A DNA stretch of 62,468 nt, the filler included, from Chrysochromulina tobinii (lineage: Eukaryota), in assembly GCA_001275005.1 (NCBI GenBank). It is 3 parts of 3 records of this genome, joined end to end, with 100 filler letters (N's around TTAATTAATTAA, not from the genome) between each part and the next. Parts side by side here need not be neighbours in the genome. Positions count along the whole stretch, not along the records: positions 31,275 to 62,468 come from JWZX01001332.1; 2 more parts are not named here. One strand, given 5' to 3'. The notes under the pieces are model-generated. The model did no database searches. It saw nothing but the letters and a program-made list of their open reading frames with translations, and had not been told where the DNA came from. Shown here piece by piece: positions 12,462 through 61,686 of the stretch (position 1 is its first letter; the number at the start of each line of letters is the position of its first letter). The translations under genes were made by a program, and so were the position numbers.

Positions 12462-12561
12462 NNNNNNNNNNNNNNNNNNNNNNNNNNNNNNNNNNNNNNN
12501 NNNNNTTAATTAATTAANNNNNNNNNNNNNNNNNNNNNNNNNNNNNNNNNNNNNNNNNNNN
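12462..12561. other. Artificial scaffold gap or linker
   Basis: N44 + TTAATTAATTAA (stops in all six frames) + N44. Confidence 0.97.
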
Positions 12562-15500
12562 GCAGCGGCGACCGATGCGCCCGAGACGGCGTCGCTTCCG
12601 AGCGGCGGCGCCGCCCCGAGCGCCACTGACGAACCCCAGACCAGCCGGGTGACGAAACCGAAGGGCGACGAAACCGACGGCGCCGAGGGAGGGCGACTGA
12701 CGAAACCCAAGGGCGGCGAAACCGACGGCGCCAAGGGAGGGCGGCTGACGAAACCGAAGCGGAGCGCCGCCGACGGAGGGGCAGTTGGCGGGATGGACAA
12801 GTCCATATTAGGCAAGTCCACCGACACGTCTTTGGGGACCGCCGATGCCGCCGCTGCCGCCGCTAGTACGGCCGCGAGCATCAGCGACGCCACCGCCGCC
12901 AGGAACGTCAGTAACGCCATCGCCAGCGCGAACAAGACGCGCCGTAGCGGCGGCAACGCCGTCGCGGGCGCCACGGGTCGCGTCGTCGCGGGCGCCACGG
13001 GCCGCGTCGTCCCCACAGGCCGCGACAGTCGCGCTCACGACGACGCTCCGCCGCCCGCGGTCGTGGCGGCGCGCCGTCGCGGGCTCCTCGGCTGGCTGCT
13101 TGGCTGCTGCTTCCCCGACGGGTCTGGCACCGAGGAGGAGGAGAGGAGCGCCGTAGCGGGCACGCTGCCGCTGCCAGCCAGTGCGTCCACCACCGGCGCC
13201 GTATCGGGCGCCACTGCCTCGGGGGCCGCGGCGCTCCGTTCACAGTGCGCTCTTCACACCCGGACCTAACTCACCCCAACAGGCCTCCCTCGCATGCAAG
13301 CGCTCACCACGACGCCCCATCTCCCCCCCTGCCCCCCTGCGTGCGCGCAGGCGCGACGCGCTGCAGGCCGAGTGCCGTGCCTTGCGTGCCGAGCTCGCCG
13401 CCGCCGCCGCCGCCCGGGACAGCGCGCAGCCCAGCACCGCTGGTGGGGGAGGTGCCCAGGACAGCGCCCGCGCCCGTGCGAGCGCCGCCGCAGCAGCCGC
13501 AGTGAGCGCCGCCCTGGAGGAGCAGGTGAGTGTCGTTAATTGCCTCTCCTGATGGCCTCTTCTGATGGCCTCTGATTGCACCTCTGATTGCGCCTCTGAT
13601 TGCGCCTCTGATTGCGCCTCTGATCGAGCATCGCCCTGGTGGAGCAGGTGGCGGCGGCCGAGGCGGCGGCGGCGGCGGCGCAGGCGGCGGCGACGGCGCA
13701 CGAGGCGCAAAGCAAGGTGAGTCTCGTCAATTGCCTCTGCAGTGCCTGTTCTGATGGCCACTGAGTAGGCGTCTCTGACGAAACTCTGCGGACGGATTGC
13801 AGGAGCTCCAGCGCGAGCTGATGGCCTCTGATTGCCTCCCTGACGAATCTCGGACGAATCCCTGACGAATCTCGGACGAATCTCGGACGAATCTCGGACG
13901 AAATGGCAGGAGCTCCAGCGCGAGCTCACGGCGGCGGCGACGGCGAGGGCGGCCGAGGCGGCGGCGACGGCGAAGGCGGCCGAGGCGGTGGCTGCGCTCG
14001 ACGATGCAGCGGCCGAGGTACGATCGCCTGCATGCACGTGCTCATCACGGCGCCGCGTCCGTCGTTCACGCCGCCTTCCTCGCTCGTTCACACCCCGTGC
14101 TCCTCGTTCACAGGTGCGCTCGCTACGTGAGCAGCTCGACGCGGCGGCGAGTGCGGCGGCGGCGGCGGCGCTCACGACGGCGCGCGAGTGGCAGGCGAAG
14201 CTCGACGCTCACGACGGCGCGAGCGCCGAGGCGGCAGCGGCGCTCGAGACGGCGCTCCAAAACAGGCAGGCGGCGCTCGAGACGGCGCTCGAGGCGGCGA
14301 CGGCTCGCGCTGGAGCGCTGGCGGAGGACGTCGACCGTTTGAGCGCCGAGTTGAGCGCTGCGAAGGCGGCCCTCGTCGCGGCGGAGCGTGCGGCCGAGGC
14401 GCAGCAGAAGGCGAGCACTCTGATGGCCTCTGATGACCTCTGAGGACCTCTGATGACCTCTGATTGCCTCGGATTGCCTCTGCTGATGACCTCTGAGGAT
14501 GGCTGATGGCCTCCCTCATCAGGCAAGCACTCTCGAGCTCGCCGCCGCTTGATGGCCTTTGATTGCCTCACTAATTAGATGGATTGCCTCCCTCATCAGG
14601 CAAGCACTCTCGAGCTCGCCGCCGCGAACGAGAGAGCCGCGATGCACGCGGCGGCAAGCGCCGAGTTGAGCGCCGACCTCGCGAGCCTCCAGGCGCGTGT
14701 GCGTGCGGCCGAGGCGGCGCAGGCGGCGGCGCAGGCGGCGGCCGAGGCGGCGTCGACGACGGCGGCGAGGGCGGCGGCCGAGGCGACGGAGGCGACGGAG
14801 GCGCTCGCGGCCGCGCATCGAGCGACGGCGCAGGCTGAAGCGACCCTTGCGACGGCCGAGGCGCAGGTGAGTGTCGTTAATTGCCTCTTCTGATGGCCTC
14901 TTCTGATTGCGTCTCTGATTGAGCGCCGCCCTGGTGGAGCAGGTGGCGGCGGCCGAGGCGGCGGCGAGTGGCGCGGCGGCGGCGCTCGCGACGGCGCTCG
15001 ACGAGCAGGCCGAGCAGCTCGATGCGAAGGATGCGGTGCTCGCTTTGTACAAGGGGCGGCTTGAGGACGTTACGGAAGCGTCGCGCCGGGCACTCGACGC
15101 TGCGGGCGCACGTGCGCGCGCGAACGGCCGCGTCGCGTTTGGGGTACGCTGATTGCCACTGATGACCGCTGATGACCTCTGATGACACCTCTGATGACAC
15201 CTCCGAGGACCTCTGATGACACCTCTGATGACACCTCTGATGACACCTCTGATGGCCGCTGATGACCGCTGATGACCGCTGATGACCTCTGATGGACGGT
15301 GATGACCTCTCTTCCCACAGGTGCTCACTCAGTCAGTGGCACTACCGGCAATGCTGTTGACACGCTCGAGCACGGGTCCGGCAGCGCCGCCGTGGGCACC
15401 CCACCCGCTGCAGGGTTGGTGGATGGCTGGTCTCCAATCGAGCGGTCTCAAGCGCCACAGGACGCGCGCAACCACGTCGGCGGCGCGCGCGGCGGTCGCG

Positions 15501-17751
15501 CTGCTGCCCCCGATGTGCGCGGCGGCGAAGGCGACTTCGTACGAGGCATGTGCGCTTCTGGTCGCGGCGGAGGCGGCGGAGGCGGAGGTGCGATCTGCGC
15601 GCGAGCTCGCGAGCTCGGCGATGAAGGCGCGGGGCGAGCGTGCGCGAGATCGAGAGGAGATCGCGAGGGTGGCGCGGCAGCTGGCGACCATGGACGCGCA
15701 GGTGAGTGCATTTTGAAGGCCTCTTGAAGGCCTCTCGATGACCTCTTGATTACCTCTCGATTGCCCATTGATTGCCCATCGAGTGTTGATGTGGCATCCA
15801 TGGATGCGCAGGTGAGTCTCGTTAATTGCCTCTTGATGACCTCTTGTTTGCCCATTGATTGCGTGTTGATGTGGCATCCATGGATGCGCAGGAGGCGGCT
15901 GTGGAACCGATGGGGCTTGCGGACGCGGGCGACGAAACTGACGAAACCACACCTCCCGCGGCTGTGGAACCGGAGGGGCTTGCGGACGCGGGCGACGAAA
16001 CTGACGAAACCAGCGGCGTGGTGGAAGCCCCAGCAACGAAACCGACGAAACTGACGGAGGAGTGCGGGGCGGGCGCGCCCGCTGCCGATGGCGCCGTGAT
16101 GGGCGCGGTCGAGGGCGCCGTGATGGCGGACGCACTCAGCGGGGAGGCGGAGGGCGCCGTGATTGCGGACGCACTCAGGGAGGAGGCGGATGCGGCGCTG
16201 TCACGTCTGTTGATGGGCGATCACGTGGCCGAGATCAGCGGCGAGATTGTGGCCGAGATCAGCGGCGACCATGTGGCCGAGATCAGCGATGATAATGTAG
16301 CCGAGGTCGCACCTGCCGACTGGGGCTTCAATGATGCTGCTCAACACGACGTCAAGGACGCTGCTCAACACGACGCCAAGGACGCTGCGTCGAGTATCAA
16401 TGAGGACGCAGCTGCCCCTGTCGACCGTGCTCAGCACGACGCTGCTCAACACGACGCCAACGACGCTGCTCAACACGACGCCAACGGTCCCGCCAGTGCG
16501 GCCGGCGATTCTGCCGGTGGCTCGTTCCAAACTAGGAGCTGGCCGCCCGCCCCTAATTTGGAACGAGCCGCCGACACGCTATCCAAGGCGGAGGCGGAGG
16601 CGCCGCCGCCACCTCCGCCGCCGCCAGCGCCGCCACCGCCCTCGCCGCCCTCTCCGCCGCCGCCCTCGCCGCACGCGGTCATGAGTGATTACGGATCGCC
16701 TTCGTTCCGGGAAGAGGCGACGAAACATTTGACGAATTCCCTCGACGCCCTGGCGCACGGCTGGGCGGCGCTCGACACGGCGCTCGCGGCCCAGCCGGCC
16801 ACGTGGCAGTTGCCGAATGCAGCCGCTGATTGCATGCGGCGCGCGAGCGAGCAGCACGCGGCTCTGCTCGCGTGCTTGGGTCGCTCGCTCCGGGTGCAGG
16901 TACGCTGATTGCATCTGATGACCCGCCCTTGCATGCATGTGCTCACCACGGCGCGATGCGGCGGGTAAGCTGATTGCATCTGATGACCTGCACTTGCATG
17001 CACGTGCTCACCACGGCGCCCGGTCTCTCCCCACGCTCCGGGTGCCCTTGCATGCATATGCTCACCACGGCGCCTCGTCTCCCCCCACGCTCCGGGTGCC
17101 CTTGCATGCATATGCTCACCACGGCGCCTCGTCTCCCCCCACGCTCCCGGTGCAGGCGGAGGCTGCGGCGGTGGCGGCGGAGGTGGAGGCGGAGGTGGCG
17201 CAGGTGGCGGCGGCGGTGGCAGGTGGTGGCGCGGGCGTGGGCGGCGCGGCGGGCAAGGGCATGGCATGGGCAGGTGCAGGCTTGCTGGTGGCGACGTGTG
17301 CTCAGGTTGCCTCGGAGGCTCTCACGCAGGTGAGTCTCGTTAATGGCCTCTTGAGTGCCTCTGATTGCTCAGGTTGCTTCGGAGGCTCTCACGCAGGTGA
17401 GTCTCGTTAATGGCCTCTTGAGTGCCTCTGATTGCCAGGCGATGCCGAGTACCACAGATGACCATTGCCAGGCGATGCCGAGTACCACTGATGACCACTG
17501 ATCATCACTGATGACCACTGATGACCACTGATGACCGCTGATGATGACTGATGATGGCTGATGATGGCTGATGTTGACTGATGACCTCTGATGACCACTG
17601 ATGATGGCTCGAGTGGCAGGCGCTGGCCCTCTGCGTGCCATCTGGAGCCGCGACTCAGTCTGTAGCAGCAGGGCCGTCGCCTCCGGCAAATGCGGCGGGT
17701 GGGGCGGGCGGCGGTCTTGGCGGACTCTTCTTCTTTCCGCCGAGACAATGA
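12562..17751 (+). CDS. 5'-truncated 11-exon gene for a large Ala/Glu-rich coiled-coil protein with a hydrophobic segment near the C-terminus
   Basis: Hand-built exons <12562-13244, 13351-13525, 13648-13716, 13910-14017, 14114-14410, 14600-14866, 14943-15143, 15321-15701, 15892-16899, 17156-17329, 17620-17751 (TGA); all junctions are GT/GC..AG and keep frame (first intron phase 2, the rest phase 0). Confidence 0.75.
13526..17619 (+). mobile_element. Cluster of repeat-filled introns, most flanked by duplications (introner-like insertions)
   Basis: Introns 13526-13647, 13717-13909, 14018-14113, 14411-14599, 14867-14942, 15144-15320, 15702-15891, 16900-17155, 17330-17619 share stereotyped ends (GTGAGT(G/C)TCGTTAAT(T/G)GCCTC, GTACGCTGATTGC, GCCTCCCTCATCAG) and CTGAT(G/T)-type fillers or the TGCATGCA..GCTCACCACGGCG cassette. 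Confidence 0.7.
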
Positions 17752-17913
17752 CCGAGATAATGAGTGGGATTGCGCGCGGGAGAGAGAGCAAGCTCATAAA
17801 GTCGTGTATCGGAACATGCGCATACTGAGGCTGTAGTCTGGGTTCGCGGGTTCATTGTTTTTTTTGACCCGCTCGCGACGGCGCTTACGCTCACGGTCGC
17901 GTGAAATATTTAA

Positions 17914-21836: not shown

Positions 21837-24005
21837 GGTGCTTGGCCTCGTTCTCGCTGTCACCGCGACGCGCGCAATCCACGTCGAGGTTGATGCGGTG
21901 CAGCTGGGCGTCACCGTGCACACCGATGACCCGCCGCTGCACCGCATCAATCCGCTCTACGTGGGCTGCCACAGCGACAGCGGCTTCACGCACCAGCGCG
22001 GGCGGCGAGCCGACGTACGCGGCGCTGCACAACCGCGGGCTGGGGAACGAGGGGCTTTACTTTGAGGAAGCCAAGCCGTACGAGGGCTTCCTCTTCCGCC
22101 AAATGCAACGGCAGCGCCGCCACGCTCGTCGCGCGGCTCGAGAGCCTTGGCGGCAGGGTGCTCTGATGACGCCCTAATGGCGCCCTAATGACGCCCTAAT
22201 GACGCCCTGATGGCGGCAGTGTGCTCGCAGAGCACACCTTCGAGTTGCTCTCGACGGACTGCGGCACGTGGACGAAGCTCGACGTTCCCCGCGCGCCGTG
22301 CATGCAAGTGCTCACCACGGCGCGGAATGCGGCACGTGGACGAAGCTCGACGTTGCCCGCGCGCCGTGCATGCCAGTGCTCACCACGGCGCGGAATGCGG
22401 CACGTGGACGAAGCTCGACGTTGCCCGCGCGCCGTGCATGCCAGTGCTCACCACGGCGCCCGCCCCTCCTGCACAGGCACGTGGACGAAGCTCGACTTTG
22501 CCCTCGCGCCCAAGACGGGCCCGAGCAAGGCCACTCGTGCGTTCGGTGTGGCGGACGGTTTACCATCGGCCTGACCACTGTGGGGGGTGTGCTCCTCGAT
22601 TTCGTCGTCCTGCAGCCTGGCCCGTGGGGTAGGCTCACTTCAGTTGATGGCGCGCCCCGGCCGGTGCGCAGATGGCCTCCCTGATGGCCTCCCTGATGAC
22701 CTCCCCGATGGCCTCCCTGATGACCTCCCTGATGGCCTCCCTGATTAACGTCGATGGCACGCCCTTGCCGGAGCGCAAACCAAATCATGGTTGATGCCAT
22801 CTGATCGCCTCTGATCGCCTCTGATCGCCTCTGATCGCCTCTGATGACCTCTGATGACCCCTGATGACCTTTGATGGCCTCTGAGGATGGCCGATCGCCT
22901 CCCTCATCAGGTACGCAAGCCAGTCGCCGACGCGCTGCGTGCCATGGGTACAGCCACGCTACGCTGCGTGTGGGTGGCTCCTTCGCCTCCGTCACCGGCT
23001 GGCCGGATGGGGGCGGCTTCACACCGGATGAGGGCTTCACACCGGATGGAGGCTTCACACCGGATGGAGGCTTCACACCGGATGGAGGCTTCACACCGGA
23101 TGGAGGCTTCACACCGGATGGGGGCGGCTTCACACCGGACTCGACCGTCTCGGGTACGTACTACCAGTGGCAGCTGCGAGTGCCTCTTCCACAGCTTTGA
23201 AGCCCAAGCTTTGAACTTGAGTGCCTTGTGCGAGCGATTGAGATGATGTCGGCAAACCAAATAATAATCTATCCCACTGACGGACTGCAAAGTCTTTGTG
23301 ATAGACGAACACAGCTCGCCACTGATCACCGCTCATGGCGCCTTGATGCCCTGATGATGCCCTGATGATGCCTGATGACGCCCTAATGACGCCCTGATGA
23401 CGCCCTGATGACGCCCTGATGACGCTCTGATGACGCCCTGATGATGCCCGCTTACTCCTGTAACGCTCTGATTGCGCGCGCGCCCGTCCTCCCAAATATG
23501 GTAGCGGTGGACCGGCCCGATTTGGAAGCGTCCGAGCGTGGTGTGGAATGCGTACCCAAATATGGTGACTCGTACTCGCTCATTGGGGGCTGGGGGCCAT
23601 TTAATTTCATCGACATGTGCGCGGCCCTGGGCATCGAACCGCCTCTGATGACCTCTGATGGGCTCTGATGACCACTGATGACCTCTGATGGGCTCTGATG
23701 GGCTCTAATGGCCTCCCTCATTAGGTGGCAGCGATGGAAGCGCGTTGCCTCCCTCGATCTGAACGGCACGCTGCGCTACATCTTCCCCGACAATGGCGGA
23801 CTCAATGCAATCAGAGGCAATCAGAGGCAATCAGAGGCAATCAGAGACAATTGCGGACTCAATGCGGACGACGTGATGAAGGCCAAAGCGCTCGGCATCG
23901 ACGCTCAGATTGCGGCCGAGATTCACGTGGGAGCCGGCGGAGGGCTCGACGAGGCTGCGCACCTCTTCGCCCGCCACCCCGACTTCCACCAATCTGCGGT
24001 CAACC
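21830..24005 (+). pseudogene. Decayed GH51-like (alpha-L-arabinofuranosidase-type) glycoside hydrolase
   Basis: Colinear fragments in shifting frames: INPLYVGCHSDSGFTHQ, NRGLGNEGLYFE, FVVLQPGPWGR, LRVGGSF, YYQWQ, RWTGPIWKRPS, LIGGWGPFNFIDMCAALGIEP, IHVGAGGG; several deletions, frameshifts and repeat insertions. Confidence 0.55.
23003..23139 (+). repeat. 18-bp coding minisatellite (GGCTTCACACCGGATGGA)n
   Basis: About 7 tandem units encoding GFTPDG. Confidence 0.9.
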
Positions 24006-29105: not shown

Positions 29106-30908
29106 CTAGTCGGCGAACGCGTGGAACGCGTCCTTGATCTCCTGGTTGAGCGCCTTGAAGTGCGCCACGAGCTTGGCCTCGCCGTCCCCGGGGAGCTGGA
29201 ACTTCTGCGAGACGATCTTGTAGATGGTGTCGTTCATGGTGGTCTTGATGCGATGGCACGTGATCTTGTTCTCGGCGGTCGAGTTCTCGATCGCCTTCTT
29301 GGCGAGATTATAGAACTCGACGATGTTGAGCATCATCCAGACTGACTTGTAAAAGGGGCACACTCGATCGTACTCGGAGAAGCCGTTCTGCTGCAGGTAG
29401 TCATCCTTGATGATCTTGGCGACCTCGAGGATGAGCTTGTCGCTCTCAGCGAGCGAGTCCTTGCCGACGAGCTGCACGATCTCGGTCAGGTCGTCCTCGG
29501 TCTGCAGGATCTCCTTGCACACGGTGCGCATGGGCGGGAACTGAGGGTAGTTGACCTCGTACCACGGGTCCAGAGCACGCAGGTACTTTGAGTACGAGAG
29601 CAGCCAGTGGAGCGAAGGGAAGTGCTTGCGCTGGGCGAGCTTCTTGTCAAGCCCCCAGAAGACCTGCACAATGCCCAGGGTGGCGGCGCACACGGGGTCC
29701 GAGAAGTCGCCACCGGGGGGCGAGACGGCGCCGACGATGGAGATGGAGCCGATGCGTTCCGGCGTGCCCATCAGAGTGGCCTTGCCCGAGCGTTCGTAGA
29801 AGGAGGCGAGGCGGGCGCCGAGGTAGGCGGGGTAGCCCGAATCGGCGGGCATCTCGGCCAGACGGCCAGAGATCTCACGCAGCGCCTCAGCCCAGCGCGA
29901 GGTCGAGTCGGCCATCATGGATGCGTCCATGCCCATGTCGCGCATGTACTCGGCCATCGTGATGCCCGTATAAATGGAGGCCTCGCGGGCGGCGACGGGC
30001 ATGTTCGAGGTGTTCGCAACGAGGGTGGTGCGCTTCATGATCGACTCTTGCTTGCCGTTCACCTCCATCGTCAGCTCAGGGAAGTCCTTGAGCACCTCCG
30101 CCATCTCGTTGCCACGCTCGCCGCAGCCGACGTAAATGATGCAATCAGAATTGGAGTACTTGGACAAGGCCTGCGAGATGACGGTCTTGCCGCAGCCAAA
30201 GGCGCCGGGCACGGCGCAGGTGCCGCCGAGCACCGACGGGAAGAGCGCGTCGATGACCCGCTGGCCGGTCAGCAGCGGCGCGTCGCCCGCAAGCTTCTCA
30301 GTGACGGGGCGCGGGGTGCGCACGGGCCAGAACTGCTGCATCGTGTGCTGCGTCTCTTTGCCCTCGAACATGGTCTTCATGACGCACGACTCGATGGTGT
30401 ACGAGCCCTTGGGGGCCACGTAGGTGACCTTGCCCGCCGTGCCGTGCTTGAGCATGATCTTGTGCAGGATGATGTTGTTCTCCTGGACCTCGCCGATGAT
30501 GTCGCCGCCGGACACGACGTCGCCGACCTTGACGCCGGTTGGCACAAAGAGCCAGTCCTTGTCGTTGTCGAGGGCAGCGGCGGAGATGCCGCGGGGAATG
30601 TAGATGGACTGGGTGAGCTCGGCGATCTTCTCGAGCGGGCGCTGAATACCGTCGTAGATGCGACCCATGCAGCCAGGGCCAAGCTGCAGCGAAAGCGGCT
30701 GGCCCGTGCAGGTGACGGGGTCGCCCACGGTCAGACCGGAGGTCTCCTCGTACACCTGGATGGTAGCGCGGTCCTCCTCAAGACGGATGATCTCGCCCAC
30801 AAGGCTGTTGTGGCCGACGCGCACGAGCTCGTACATCGCCGCGCCGAGCATATTATCGGCGATAACGACGGGGCCGGAGACGGAGTACACACCACCGACG
30901 CGCGCCAT
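29106..30908 (-). CDS. ATP6V1A: V-type H+-ATPase catalytic subunit A (600 aa, no intein); probable 5'-UTR intron 30920-31013
   Basis: VSGPVV, Walker [54 protein letters not shown]. Confidence 0.97.
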
Positions 30909-31174: not shown

Positions 31175-31274
31175 NNNNNNNNNNNNNNNNNNNNNNNNNN
31201 NNNNNNNNNNNNNNNNNNTTAATTAATTAANNNNNNNNNNNNNNNNNNNNNNNNNNNNNNNNNNNNNNNNNNNN
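31175..31274. other. Artificial scaffold gap or linker
   Basis: N44 + TTAATTAATTAA + N44. Confidence 0.97.
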
Positions 31275-50754: not shown

Positions 50755-52052
50755 TCACCTCATCTCCCACGGCGGTGTCGCTTCCCACGCCCACCACCCG
50801 CCGCCACCGACACCACCTTCCAACGCGTGCACCGTGGCGCCTCCGACCGCCGCCGAGAGATCCTCAGCGCTCGAACCACACACGGGCTTTGAGCAGCAGA
50901 CGCGGAGGGCGCCCTGCAGCACGACGCGGCGAGGAGCGCTGCCAGAGCGACCAGGTGCCCACCCATCGCCATCCGTCGGGGTCGCCTCCTTGATCTCGGC
51001 CTCGATCTCGGCCTTGATCTCGGCCCAGCGCAGCCGCCCAGCGCGCCATCGCATGGACACGCGCCAACCGCCGCGCGCCCGCAGCCCGCTGACGTCGCCG
51101 TCCGTCCAGGCGGGCGGCAGCGCAGGGAGCAGCCTCAGATCGCACATGGCGGCGGGAGCGGCCGCAGCGGCGGGCGTGTTGGGTGTGAGCGGGCGCGAGT
51201 GGAGGAGCATCTCGGCGACGCCCGAGACGACGCCGCCGTTGGCGTCGAGCTGGAAGACCCCGCTGCCTGGCGTGGCCGACGTCGCGCGCGTTGCGCACGG
51301 CGCGCATTTGCCACCACCTACCGCTCGCTTGCCGACGAGCTTTGGGTGTAGCCCCAGGAGCGCATCGGAGGCGAACTCGTGCAGCGTGTACCGTAGCGCC
51401 GCGTGCGCCCTCCCGCCATCAAAGAGACGCGCCCACAGGCTCACGGCCCACGCGGCCGACCAGCCCACATGCGCACCGCCCGCGCGCAGCCGGCGCTCAA
51501 TCGAGCGCCTCGCCGCCCGCGCGTGTGTCGGATGCTCGAGCCCATCGAGCGTGTGGCCCGGGTGCAGCGCGTACAGGTGTGAAAAGTGGCGATGCCCTTC
51601 GTCCGCTGCTGGCTGTGCGTCACCCGTGCCCCACTCAGCGAGCTCGCCTAGTGAGGGAAGCAGTCGCAGCTCATCAGAGGCAATCAGAAAAGTCATCAGC
51701 GGCACTCCCCATTCAGCGAGCTCGCCTGCCCACGAGAGCTGCGGCAGGCCACGGTTAGGGTTCGGGTTCGGGTTCGGGTTAGGGTTAGCTCGCCTGCCGA
51801 CGAGAGCTGCGGTAGGCCGCCACCGGGCAGCCGCGGCAGCAGCGCCGCCATGCGTGCACCTAGAGCTCGGTCTACCGGCCCGAGGCTCCCAAGGGCCTCG
51901 AGAAAGTGAACTGCCACCACCACGGCGCGTATGAGGTGGGCAATCACGCCCAGGTCGATCGCCACGTCGTACGCGAGGATGCGCGTCGCGCTCCCGTTGT
52001 GCCCATCGAGGTACGCGTTCTCGGGCGAGTGCGACGGGCCCCAGCGCAACCG

Positions 52053-52085
<33 letters not shown>

Positions 52086-54494
52086 CTCGCCGCCGCCCTC
52101 GCCGCCCCCGTCGCTCTCCGAGGCGAGTCGCAGCCCTTCCTCGGCAAAGAGGGCGGCGCCGCGCAGCAGTGGCCACGCCTCGAGCAGATGCGACGCCTCC
52201 GCCGTGTACTCAAAGCGCTCAAACAACTGCAAAGAGGCCCACGCGCCGCAGCTGGTGCACAGTGACCAAAGGGGCGGCGCGAGCGGTGCGGCGGAGGCCC
52301 AGCCGTCGGTGAAACCGTGCGCCATCCACGCGCCCGCCACGGCGCTGCCGTAGAGCTGCCGTGCTACCGCCTCGCCCGAGGCCGCCACTCGCGCGAGAAA
52401 GGGGGCCAGCGGCAAGGCGCAGCGCGCCAATCCCGTTGGACCCGTCCCCCAGTACGCCTGCTGCAGGTTGATGTTCAGATGGTAGTCGGCGCCCCACGGC
52501 GGGCGCGTGCCCTCGGCCCACAGCCCTTGGAGATTGGGCGGGAGCGTGGCGCGCGAACCTGACGAGGCAAGGAGGAGGTATCGACCCAGCTGCACAAACG
52601 TCTCGACCAGCCCCACGTCCTCAAGCGGCGCCCCCGACGACGCGGTTGTGGAGCCCGACGCGGCTGTTGAGCCCGGGGCGTCGGCCGAGGAGGCGGAGGC
52701 GTCGGTGGCGGGCGTGGAGGCGTCGGTGGCCGAGGTGGGTGCGGCGGCGGCCGCGGCGGCGGCGGCGGCGGCGGCGGCGACGCGGGAGGCGGCGAGGCGC
52801 TGGTCAGTGGGCATATGGGGTTGTCGAGTGCCATGGTGCAGGCGGAGGCGGAAGGTGCCGAAGCTCGCCGCGTGATGCGCCGTGTGCCGCGCCACAAGCG
52901 ATGCCCACGTGCGGCGGCCCGCCGCGCTCAGTGTCTCAAAGCAGCGAGCGATGAGCGCCGGGCTGCTCTGCTTTCGGAACTGCAGTCGCTCCTGGAAGTC
53001 GGTAGCCGCGCTTAATAGAAGTTGAACCGAGCGAACTCTGCGTACGCTGATCGTCGCGCCGCCGTCCTCGTCCTCGCCGCCCTTATCCTCCATCGGCGTG
53101 TCCGACTGGGACGCCACCAGCGCCAAGACGGCGCCAAAGGCGACCCCATCGCGACTTGTGCTGCCGACAATGCTGATGGCCCGCCCCAGGAGGTGCGGCA
53201 GCGAGGTGCTCGACGGCGTGTTGGCCGCCGTGCCGCGCACGAGCCCGCCCACCGAGCTTTGGCCGTCGCGTCGTGAGAGACTGAAGACCGCGTCGAAGGC
53301 ACACGAGCTGTTGAGGTGCAGGGCGAGCACCTGATCTGGCGACGAGACGAAGACCGAGCGCTCATACATGCATGCACCGCTCTGAAAGCGGACGGTGGCG
53401 ATGGCGGACTCGAGATTGAGTTCTCGACGGTACTCGACGACGTCGGACGTCACGACGCTTGCGCCCCTCGCGCCAAGGTCGGCGCCGCTGGCGGAGAGGC
53501 GCAGCCCGAGTGTGCCCAGAAATTCGTACGAGTGCACCTTTCCAAGCGGGAGCTTTGCTGCCGCAGCCTCGGCGCCATGCACGTCGCCCTCGGCCATGCG
53601 TCGACGCATGGCACGGCCGGCGTCGGCACGCTCCTCGAGGCCGCGCGTGAACTCGTCGTGTGCGGCGCGGCTCGGGGGCGGGCCGGCGAAGAGCGACTCC
53701 TCGTTTAGGCTTAAGGCGTCCTTCCACGGACGGCCGTAGACGAGAGCCCCCAACCGCCCATTGCCTATCGGAAAGCTGTCCTCCACGCGCGTGGCCGGCT
53801 GCGCAAGCCACAGCGATTCCGCGCGAGGCAGCTCGTCGGCCGCCGCGCCTTTGGCGAGCTCTTCGTCCACGGCAGCGGCCGCGAGCACGGGCGCGCTCAG
53901 CAGCAAGGCGCTCGACGAGGCGCGAGGCATGGCGGCCGACGAGGCGCTCGACGACGAGGTGGCCACCTTGGTGGCTGATGCCTGAGCGAGCCTTGCCGTA
54001 CGGCCTCCTTTGACGCAGCGCGAGCCGCCAGGGTAGCCGCCGCCGCTGCGTATTGCGTCGGAGCACGGCCATGGCGTCCCCTTCACGTACCCGCGGCAAC
54101 CGGCCAGCGAGGAGCACCACACGCACCGCACGCCTGAATCAATAGGCTGCTTGCGTGCGCGGATGCGCAAGCACGCCGAGCAGGAATGCGAACCGGAGGC
54201 AGCGCAATTGACGCTGTCCACAGCTACGAGGTCGGCGGGCTCAGCATGTGCCTGAATGGCAATCACCTCGTGGTCGTGGGGCTCAGCGTGTTCCTGAATC
54301 GCCGCTGGTGGTGGAGTTGGTGCGCCTGTGGCGGGTGCGTGTAGCACCACGCTCAACGGCGCTCGATTGAGGTATGCATAGAGGAGGAAGTGTGCGTAGA
54401 GGAGGGCGCCCACAGAGCCGATGGCGACGCGCCGCCGGCCCGCCCGCCCGACCGCCGCCAGGGACGCACCGCAACCTTTGTGTAGTCCATCCAT
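50755..54494 (-). CDS. GH95 alpha-L-fucosidase with an N-terminal TM anchor and Cys-rich (PSI-like) module; compound intron 51648-51793
   Basis: FPIGNGRLGA, LNEESL, YRRELNL, QLGRYLLLASS, PPNLQGLW, PPWGADYHLNINLQQAYW, SPEN; after splicing GELAEWG..HRHFSHLYALHPG, GWSAAW, FQLDANGG, LLPALP..W..G..GLRARGG. Confidence 0.92.
51755..51788 (+). repeat. Interstitial telomere-type repeat inside an intron
   Basis: TTAGGG TTCGGG TTCGGG TTCGGG TTAGGG TTAG, flanked by a 32-nt direct duplication of host sequence. Confidence 0.85.
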
Positions 54495-59916: not shown

Positions 59917-61383
59917 ATGCTGCTAGCAAAATGCCTTTGTTACATGTGTGCAATTCCGGCTCGCAGTTTGTCCGTGTACATGCTCTCCCGACCTGGCGAG
60001 GTGGTTGGCATAGACCTGGGCACCACGAGCTCGGCAGTCGCCGTCGTGCTTGGCGGCGAGCCGGAGATGGTTCCAGATGAGGCCGGCCGCACGACAATGC
60101 CGTCGCTAGTCGACATTGAGCTTGGCCTGACCGGCCACATGGCCGTCGGTACATCGGCGGTCGGCTCGACGAAGCGGCTCATCGGACGGTCGTACGCAGA
60201 CGTCAAGGAGTCGGCGGCAGTGCGGGCACTCTTTGGCAAGGCGCTCGCGCCGGCTGAGGATGGCAGCGCCGTCGTGGGTGCGTGCTCGCCTGTGGCCGCG
60301 GCCAGCGCGCTGTTGGAACGCCTGTTGGACGTGTCCGAGGCGGCATGCGGCGTGCGCGCATCCAAGGCAGTGCTTACCGTGCCCGCGCACTTTACGGAGC
60401 CACAGCGCGCGGCGATGCGTCTGGCCGCCGAGCGGGCAGGGCTCGCTAAGTGCCGACTGCTCGAGGAGCCTGTCGCGGCCGCGCTCGCGTACGGCGTGCG
60501 CCTCAAGGACGAGGACGAGCTCGTGATGGTCTTCGACCTCGGCGGCGGCACGCTCGATGTGTCTCTGCTGCGGGTCGGGCGTGGCACCGCCGAGGTGCTC
60601 TCGAGCGCTGGCGAGCCTTGGCTGGGCGGAGATGATTTTGACCTCGCGATCGCGAAGCACATTTCGAGCGTGCACGTGCTCGTCGAGCAGGTGGGCGGCG
60701 GCCTCGCGCGTCGCGTGGATGAGCGCTCGCCTTTGGTGCGTCAGTTGGCGCGCCTCCTCAAGGAGCGCTGTACAGTCGTCAAGGTGGCCGAGGAGCCGCT
60801 GCCCATGGGGCTGAGTTTTGGGGAGACGGGGGCGAGCGAGGGAGGGCGCGAGGGAGGAGAGGCGGTGGCAACGCCCACGCACGTCTCGCTCAGCCGTGCG
60901 GCGCTCGAGGCGGCGTGCGCGGATCTTCTGGGTGCGATGCGCCGGCCCGTCATCGAAGCATGCACGCAGGCGCAGGTCGCTCTCCCAGGGGCGGCCCGCG
61001 GAGCGGCCTCGAGGGCGAGCACCACAAGCCTCGCGGGGAAGCTCGCGCGCGCGCCGTCGCTGCGCGGGCTGCGCATCAACACAGTGCTACGCGTGGGCGC
61101 AGCCAGCCGGATGCCTGCCGTCGGTCGGCTTCTCGAAGCTCTGGTCGGCGTGCCGTGCCCCATCGGCGAGCTGCCGCCGGAACATGCTGTGGCGCTCGGC
61201 GCGGCAGTGCAGGCGGGCGTGCTCGAGGGTTCGATCGAGCAGCTCGACGTCTTCAATCCGCTCGAGGCGGCGCTCATCCGTGGCATCGGCAGCGGCGCGG
61301 GGCAGCGCACGCAGCGTGAACGCACCGGTGTTCCCTCGGGCTCAAGAAAGAATGGACGGAAGCAGCGGAGGAGCTCGTTGTAA
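59917..61383 (+). CDS. Hsp70-like protein, nucleotide-binding domain only
   Basis: VGIDLGTT, TVPAHF, EEPVAAALAYG, VFDLGGGTLDVSLL, LGGDDFD, GAASRMP, PEHAVALGAAVQAG; stop shortly after the interdomain linker. Confidence 0.85.
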   Translation: MLLAKCLCYMCAIPARSLSVYMLSRPGEVVGIDLGTTSSAVAVVLGGEPEMVPDEAGRTTMPSLVDIELGLTGHMAVGTSAVGSTKRLIGRSYADVKESAAVRALFGKALAPAEDGSAVVGACSPVAAASALLERLLDVSEAACGVRASKAVLTVPAHFTEPQRAAMRLAAERAGLAKCRLLEEPVAAALAYGVRLKDEDELVMVFDLGGGTLDVSLLRVGRGTAEVLSSAGEPWLGGDDFDLAIAKHISSVHVLVEQVGGGLARRVDERSPLVRQLARLLKERCTVVKVAEEPLPMGLSFGETGASEGGREGGEAVATPTHVSLSRAALEAACADLLGAMRRPVIEACTQAQVALPGAARGAASRASTTSLAGKLARAPSLRGLRINTVLRVGAASRMPAVGRLLEALVGVPCPIGELPPEHAVALGAAVQAGVLEGSIEQLDVFNPLEAALIRGIGSGAGQRTQRERTGVPSGSRKNGRKQRRSSL

Positions 61384-61686
61384 ATGTGTTATTGTTTCGC
61401 AGTGAGCGGTGAGCGGTGACAAATCAGCAGACCGATGCGCCCCGGAGAGTGTGCTGAAAAGCCCCGCGCCGCGCCCGGGGGCGCGGCCGCGCCGACCGCG
61501 GGGCACGCGGGAACCTGGGCGTCGCCTCCGTCAGCCCGAGTCCCAGACGCCAGAGAAATCCCGACCCCAGCGCCCAGGTACCGGTAGCACTCTAAAACAT
61601 AAGAATGAAGTAGGGAGTTCGAGTTACCGGTCAAACCTGTGTGATCCGTGTGCCCGTGTTAGAAGTCACACACACACACATACACA

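Follow-up and report, generated by a model that had tools for sequence, protein, structure and literature searches.

The stretch of DNA analysed here, referred to as the window, comprises 62,468 nt from Chrysochromulina tobinii. It consists of three contigs, their joins being marked by N blocks at 12462-12561 and 31175-31274 and by a short AT spacer, and gene order across these joins is meaningless. The contigs carry several genes. An intron-less gene for subunit A of the V-type ATPase lies at 29106-30908 on the minus strand; its 600-residue product is 92% identical to the representative of a cluster with a Chrysochromulina rotalis protein among its members, and the identity to the representative for Phaeocystis cordata is 83%, which marks the source as a Chrysochromulina-like haptophyte. 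An open frame at 59970-61385 on the plus strand has, by eye, the look of an Hsp70/DnaK-type ATPase domain.

The insert described here lies in a gene for a GH95 glycosidase (alpha-1,2-fucosidase family), on the minus strand, with matches to Pfam PF22124, PF14498 and PF21307. By eye, the N-terminal part of this gene (53800-54494, minus strand) encodes a predicted stretch resembling a membrane anchor and a segment rich in cysteine, which are common to the closest relatives and absent from bacterial GH95 proteins. The features of the locus, all on the minus strand, are as follows.

51794..54494, minus strand: GH95 exon 1, an open reading frame matching PF14498 (E 3.9e-40) and PF22124 (E 1.6e-53); the predicted start is the first ATG, at 54494
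51648..51793, minus strand: phase-1 GC-AG intron of 146 nt, a stretch absent from contigs of the RNA runs X12 and X15
51787..51820, minus strand: duplication 1, upstream copy, made up of the last 27 nt of exon 1 and the 7-nt GC donor
51753..51786, minus strand: telomere-type tract of 34 nt, C-rich on the sense strand, with two TTAGGG-type and three TTCGGG-type full units
51719..51752, minus strand: duplication 1, intronic copy, with 3 mismatches in 34 nt
51707..51725, minus strand: duplication 2, copy within the intron, repeating with 1 mismatch the 19 nt that open exon 2
51648..51706, minus strand: piece of 59 nt containing three CTGAT motifs and, at its TAG end, the acceptor in use
51629..51647, minus strand: duplication 2, exonic copy, which is the start of exon 2
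50755..51647, minus strand: GH95 exon 2, through the stop codon, matching PF22124 (E 6.9e-29) and PF21307 (E 2.9e-15)

Read along the sense strand, the insert region therefore has the exon end (A), the donor (B), the tract, a copy of A, a copy of the start of the next exon (B and C), the CTGAT piece with its AG, and the true exon start. A first-pass annotation of the window had described part of this region, 51726-51793, as a 68-nt GC-AG intron consisting only of a 32-nt host duplication and telomeric repeats. The letters, coordinates, tract, duplication and GC..AG ends that it gave are all found. The 68-nt unit (51793-51726, minus strand) starts with GC and ends with AG, and is made up of 7 nt of host copy, the 34-nt tract, and a 27-nt copy of the upstream exon end. 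As a description of the intron this is nevertheless too short, since the second, 19-nt duplication and the CTGAT piece also belong to the 146 nt removed.

The tract (51786-51753) has five full AACCCT or AACCCG units followed by AACC. Its outer units correspond to the TTAGGG hexamer, and three consecutive units to TTCGGG. It is the sole run of at least two such hexamers in the 62-kb window, where the number of five-unit tracts expected from base composition is about 5e-12. Where it meets the donor-side host copy, the two overlap by 2 nt that fall in the register of the repeat. Duplication 1 can be counted either as 32 nt with 2 mismatches or as 34 nt with 3. In duplication 2, the 19 nt at 51725-51707 recur at 51647-51629. 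Of the four differences between duplicated copies, three leave the encoded amino acid unchanged.

Splicing of the GH95 insert

The stretch is contained in six RNA runs. Junctions were compared in the contigs (not the reads) of four of these, X12, X15, X16 and X17, at a depth of 2.5-3; X12 and X15 may belong to one campaign. Contigs in two of the four runs, one of 145 nt in X12 and one of 51 nt in X15, join 51794 to 51647, with 146 nt removed. Judged by their 3 mismatches, by a remaining length of 92 and by their loose ends, they fit only the 146-nt junction when this is compared with the 68-only, 78-only and unspliced forms. Contigs of X12 and X15 also end at 51649 and 51787, where a 146-nt intron is expected to make contigs branch, and both the 51-nt length of the X15 junction contig and these contig branch points were predicted from such ends and then observed. 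A contig of X14 has 28 unaligned letters at 51794, a placement compatible with the 146-nt junction. The insert is best read as a GC-AG spliceosomal intron that is removed as 146 nt, as seen in the contig junction. The donor proposed by the first-pass annotation is thus the one in use, whereas the acceptor is not: the AG used lies 78 nt further on.

Unspliced contigs are present in X12, X13, X15 and X16, one from X15 being unbroken over 51620-51816, and they may represent DNA or retained intron. X16 has an unspliced contig alone, and X17 has no contig from the GH95 locus. RNA missing only 51726-51793, or only the other 78 nt, was found in none of the four runs at this low depth.

The protein sequence agrees with removal of 146 nt. 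The resulting frame is stop-free across the translated stretch 50950-54494, and the EW and HRH motifs are then 12 residues apart, compared with a distance of 10-22 residues in all but one of 120 relatives. Removal of 68 nt also leaves the frame open, but with 26 extra residues and a spacing of 38. A protein search with the frame reading through the tract gave no match at E 10 among 1777 candidates.

The inner AG (51727-51726) abuts a second GC donor, giving an AG|GC site at 51726/51725, inside the intronic copy of duplication 1. This site is a trap for annotation, because a 68-nt intron call keeps the frame open while adding 26 spurious residues. It also means that removal in one step, removal of 68 nt followed by 78 nt, and removal of 78 nt followed by 68 nt all give an identical mRNA, so that the RNA contigs settle the mRNA and not the route. 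No splicing intermediates at the inner site were seen among the low-depth contigs.

The branch-point consensus of other eukaryotes is CTRAY, and that of haptophytes may differ. The tract contributes to three CTAAC motifs, a sequence that the first-pass annotation had given as the branch-point consensus. They lie 111-141 nt from the acceptor in use, with one CTAAC 33 nt before the inner AG. The branch-like motifs of the CTGAT piece are nearer, 30-52 nt from its AG, and judging from these positions the branch point is likely in the CTGAT motifs and not in the tract.

The intron site in relatives and in a wild strain

The six closest GH95 proteins (49-61% identical) are all single open frames through the intron site. 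Two further loci, L003 and L006, are also continuous across it, although L006 falls in the P0005 cluster and is hence not independent. The contigs of the relatives are up to 35 kb long and appear to be genomic. Since all of these sequences are uninterrupted at the site, the comparison suggests that the intron was likely gained in this lineage, and the expectation that relatives would be found without it is borne out. A relative carrying the 68-nt unit alone was not found among 80 loci, of which three are identical to the window.

Over 51560-51860, three metagenome assemblies match the window exactly. The wild strain X13 differs from it by 13 letters in about 1820 (about 0.7%). The insert is present in X13 over the part covered, 51648-51744, where the acceptor is CAG in place of the TAG of the window. 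Both copies and the 3' piece must therefore be older than the split from that strain. It may be added that in X13 a 12-nt repeat of the GH95 C-terminus is shorter by 24 nt (50988-51011), and that a 2-nt insertion at 51271 would shift the frame; both come from single low-depth contigs and are possibly errors.

Copied junctions in other introns of the window

For comparison, nine GT/GC-AG introns were picked by hand at 13350-17760 on the plus strand; these are predicted introns rather than RNA-checked ones, and their excision gives a single frame of 936 residues. In six of the nine, a copy of at least 12 nt of the adjoining exon is found at an AG, as against 25 of 19322 random AG|GY pairs. Two have an inner AG with a copy of the downstream exon start, and in two others the end of the upstream exon recurs inside the intron together with a donor; each layout has its counterpart in one half of the GH95 intron. 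Three (13526, 15702 and 16900) end in upstream-exon sequence copied into the intron, and two (13717 and 14411) show later additions at the exon start. CTRAY motifs within the nine are strongly oriented, 54 being sense and 3 antisense, and the window as a whole holds 13 clusters of at least three such motifs. Reportedly, the Emiliania genome has strand-biased intron repeats of 10-11 nt and many GC donors.

The 59-nt piece of the GH95 intron has its own resemblances, to acceptors in the window at 14522, 14599, 22910 and 23725. Other contigs, present in all four RNA runs at depths of up to about 25, fit 51652-51687 with 4-5 differences in 35-36 nt, and their loose ends repeat the acceptor and exon start. 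To judge from the predicted introns, this genome habitually copies splice junctions and adds repeats as filler, and the telomere-type tract would be just one filler among several.

Several further features of this kind were observed. The gene at 13350-17760 is low-complexity and alanine-rich, and most of its nine predicted introns are filled by CTGAT-type repeats of 10-12 nt. Junction copies are nested twice at 14411-14599, 15702-15891 and 17330-17619. Further repeat-filled candidate introns occur at 22156-23730 on the plus strand; three 68-nt tandem copies precede an acceptor at about 22477, each repeating the start of the next exon, and arrays of 11-mers containing CCCTAA are found at 22163-22211 and 23351-23442.

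Database scans were also conducted. In viral_contigs, the scans for the acceptor family and for CTGAT arrays returned nothing; in genome_contigs, one of the two returned nothing and the other two prokaryote records. A pattern of donor plus telomere repeat was matched by five viral_contigs loci, none of them resembling the GH95 intron. The plain telomere pattern was found at 126 or more loci, 125 of which were examined (127 tracts); five had a flanking match of at least 12 nt, all of these being low-complexity or telomere-like, and the loci thus provide no evidence either way on strand bias.

Origin of the intron

Direct repeats of host sequence, of 34 nt and 19 nt, flank the insert, as is expected for intron gain at staggered breaks. 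The first-pass annotation had proposed that a break gave rise to the duplication-flanked insert, and the combination of duplication and filler does fit staggered-break repair, which we take to be the probable cause of the insertions. We lean towards a model in which the 146-nt intron was gained at a CAG|GC site by two rounds of such repair, with the CTGAT piece inserted first and the tract probably a passenger. In the first round, a CTGAT-repeat piece with its own branch-like motifs and AG would have inserted 19 nt past the CAG|GC site, the 19-nt copy providing a GC donor and so creating a 78-nt intron. A second break would then have spanned the new donor, and its repair would have left telomere-type DNA of 34 nt along with a duplication of equal length. 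The tract would have arrived 7 nt inside an existing intron and would have needed no splice signals of its own, the spliceosome taking the outer donor and the outer acceptor with a branch likely in the CTGAT motifs. The tract could stem from telomerase, or from telomeric DNA or RNA introduced through end joining.

Two considerations point to this order of events. If the CTGAT piece came first, the tract lies just within a ready intron and can be free of signals; and the acceptor in use is at a shorter distance from the CTGAT motifs than from CTAAC. Both orders have look-alikes in the window. The divergence of the two duplications is similar (3/34 and 1/19 mismatches, Fisher P = 1.0), and with such similar divergence and four copy differences, which are too few, the two events can be neither dated nor ordered in this way. 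The divergence thus speaks neither for nor against the proposal that the telomeric insertion came first and created the intron.

It is possible that the telomere-type insertion came first, although we regard this as the less probable order. A staggered break in an intact exon would have given the tract and the 34-nt copy, which together would form a working 68-nt intron, and the CTGAT piece would have been added later. The 68-nt unit does have a donor, a branch-like motif and an AG at sensible spacing; the three predicted introns that end in an upstream-exon copy are like it in this respect, and the two with exon-start additions provide a parallel for the later step. A corollary is that the 68-nt and 78-nt units may be removed in succession through the inner AG|GC, and since the two-step routes give the same mRNA, the 146-nt junction contigs are compatible with it. 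Against this, intermediates with only one unit removed are missing from all four RNA runs, which is weak evidence at low depth, the unspliced X15 contig is intact over both units, and the 80 loci include no relative with the 68-nt unit alone. Insertion into an existing intron also takes fewer coincidences. The complete version, in which the telomere-type insertion made a 68-nt intron by providing the branch point, a 78-nt intron was added directly behind it without an intervening exon, and removal is stepwise through AG|GC, seems to us unlikely. If true, it would mean that an intron born of telomere repeats and recursive splicing are combined within 146 nt, in a genome whose introns grow by copying their own splice junctions again and again.

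The tract itself is of interest for its source. The first-pass annotation described TTAGGG as a widespread eukaryotic telomere repeat, and it is the one reported for other haptophytes, namely Pavlova lutheri (PMC3622300), Phaeocystis globosa (PMC11347835) and Calcidiscus leptoporus, in which interstitial tracts are described as frequent (PMC13518057); two of the five full units of the tract are exact. It further attributed the insertion to telomerase healing a break. The geometry permits this, since a 3' overhang could have primed synthesis of the G-rich strand. However, at the 3' end that telomerase would have extended there are zero in-register bases, the G-rich strand departing from the host copy after C, and three of the five units are TTCGGG. 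If telomerase made the tract, these three consecutive units would have to be explained by a degenerate template, or else by mutation and slippage at a later time. In the horse insertions reported in PMC7215372, at least one in-register base is present in 31 of 40 and none in 9 of 40, so the missing register bases weaken the case for telomerase but do not refute it. A telomerase origin of the tract is unproven, and an end-joining copy of telomeric or subtelomeric DNA would fit equally well.

The same features could be read to mean that the tract is not telomeric at all, being a microsatellite that arose by slippage from a CTAAC-like seed at the junction and was kept, as the genome's CTGAT and CTAAT arrays would be, because branch-like arrays on the sense strand of introns are tolerated or favoured. 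The variant units and the lack of register, compared with the majority of horse loci (PMC7215372), would suit such an origin, as would the neighbouring introns full of sense-strand CTRAY arrays and the CCCTAA-containing 11-mer array at 22163-22211. We consider it improbable: the tract sits exactly between two 34-nt host copies, as an inserted sequence would; its outermost units match the telomere hexamer of haptophytes without a difference; its donor-side junction overlaps in the repeat register; and the minority of horse loci (PMC7215372) lack an in-register base likewise. Finally, it is very doubtful that the junction contigs represent DNA of an insert-free allele or strain in the RNA libraries, with the insert-bearing allele unspliced or broken: a pre-insertion sequence would equal the spliced form, and DNA carry-over is possible in libraries that contain unspliced and some intergenic contigs, but the three metagenome assemblies agree with the window letter for letter over the insert, eleven DNA runs (which may be the source of the window) contain 0.99 of its words, the insert has GC..AG ends with a donor resembling that at 14411, and the diverged strain X13 retains the covered insert with a CAG acceptor and both exons intact.

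Each part of the favoured two-round model has a precedent, in intron gain by break repair, in interstitial telomeric insertions, and in Chrysochromulina introners. The origin of intron sequences in general is described as open, break repair having been proposed but seldom traced (PMC3443670). A close parallel is with the neointrons of Daphnia pulex, which include a class termed 'staggered-then-staggered' (PMC4202315). As there, the GH95 intron is new relative to its relatives, is bordered by directly repeated sequence of the neighbouring exon, and has an internal direct repeat that points to a second event (PMC4202315, PMC3443670). It differs in that the Daphnia duplications are 4-12 nt, whereas the GH95 copies are 19 and 34 nt, both spanning a splice junction, and the donor is GC (PMC4202315). 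The filler is also different, being telomere-type; the string 'telomer' is absent from the main text of both papers (PMC4202315, PMC3443670). In tandem genomic duplication, duplicated AG|GY copies can similarly act as donor and acceptor with the coding sequence unchanged, but the GH95 intron has non-host filler between the copies and two events at one site (PMC3443670).

Breaks in the human and horse genomes have received short interstitial telomeric sequences (PMC7215372). None of the human ones is exonic, whereas the GH95 tract sits at an intron donor. The tract also departs from most interstitial telomeric insertions in that source by having no in-register priming bases and variant units at three of five positions (PMC7215372). 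In the literature searched, which leaves subscription journals mostly outside, no report of introns made from telomere repeats was found, and a word search of the main texts of the Chrysochromulina tobin and Phaeocystales genome papers found nothing on intron repeats.

The 3' piece resembles introners in being repeated and in carrying one splice site while the target duplication gives the other (PMC9860276); its 19-nt target duplication begins with the GC donor, as an introner would need. In the Chrysochromulina introner family described in PMC9860276 the duplications measure 4 bp and the element brings the 5' site, compared with 19 nt and the 3' site here, and the GH95 piece differs further in having a body of variable microsatellite repeats. 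Ratchet points of Drosophila are comparable to the inner AG|GC site, in that an acceptor abuts a donor and stepwise removal without an exon is possible in principle (PMC8605326). Recursive splicing in Drosophila concerns long introns, whereas the GH95 intron has 146 nt and its stepwise use is hypothetical (PMC8605326).

At the GH95 locus, two fillers and both junction copies are legible and supported by RNA, and most of the repeat-filled introns of the neighbouring gene share this footprint. The genome is therefore a practical one for counting how often break repair creates or enlarges introns, by filler type and by strand, and for testing telomere repeats as branch points. With regard to strand, the cluster at 23810-23844 (minus strand) is the sole CTGAT cluster opposite in orientation to its neighbours; either it breaks the sense bias or it may be part of a different gene.
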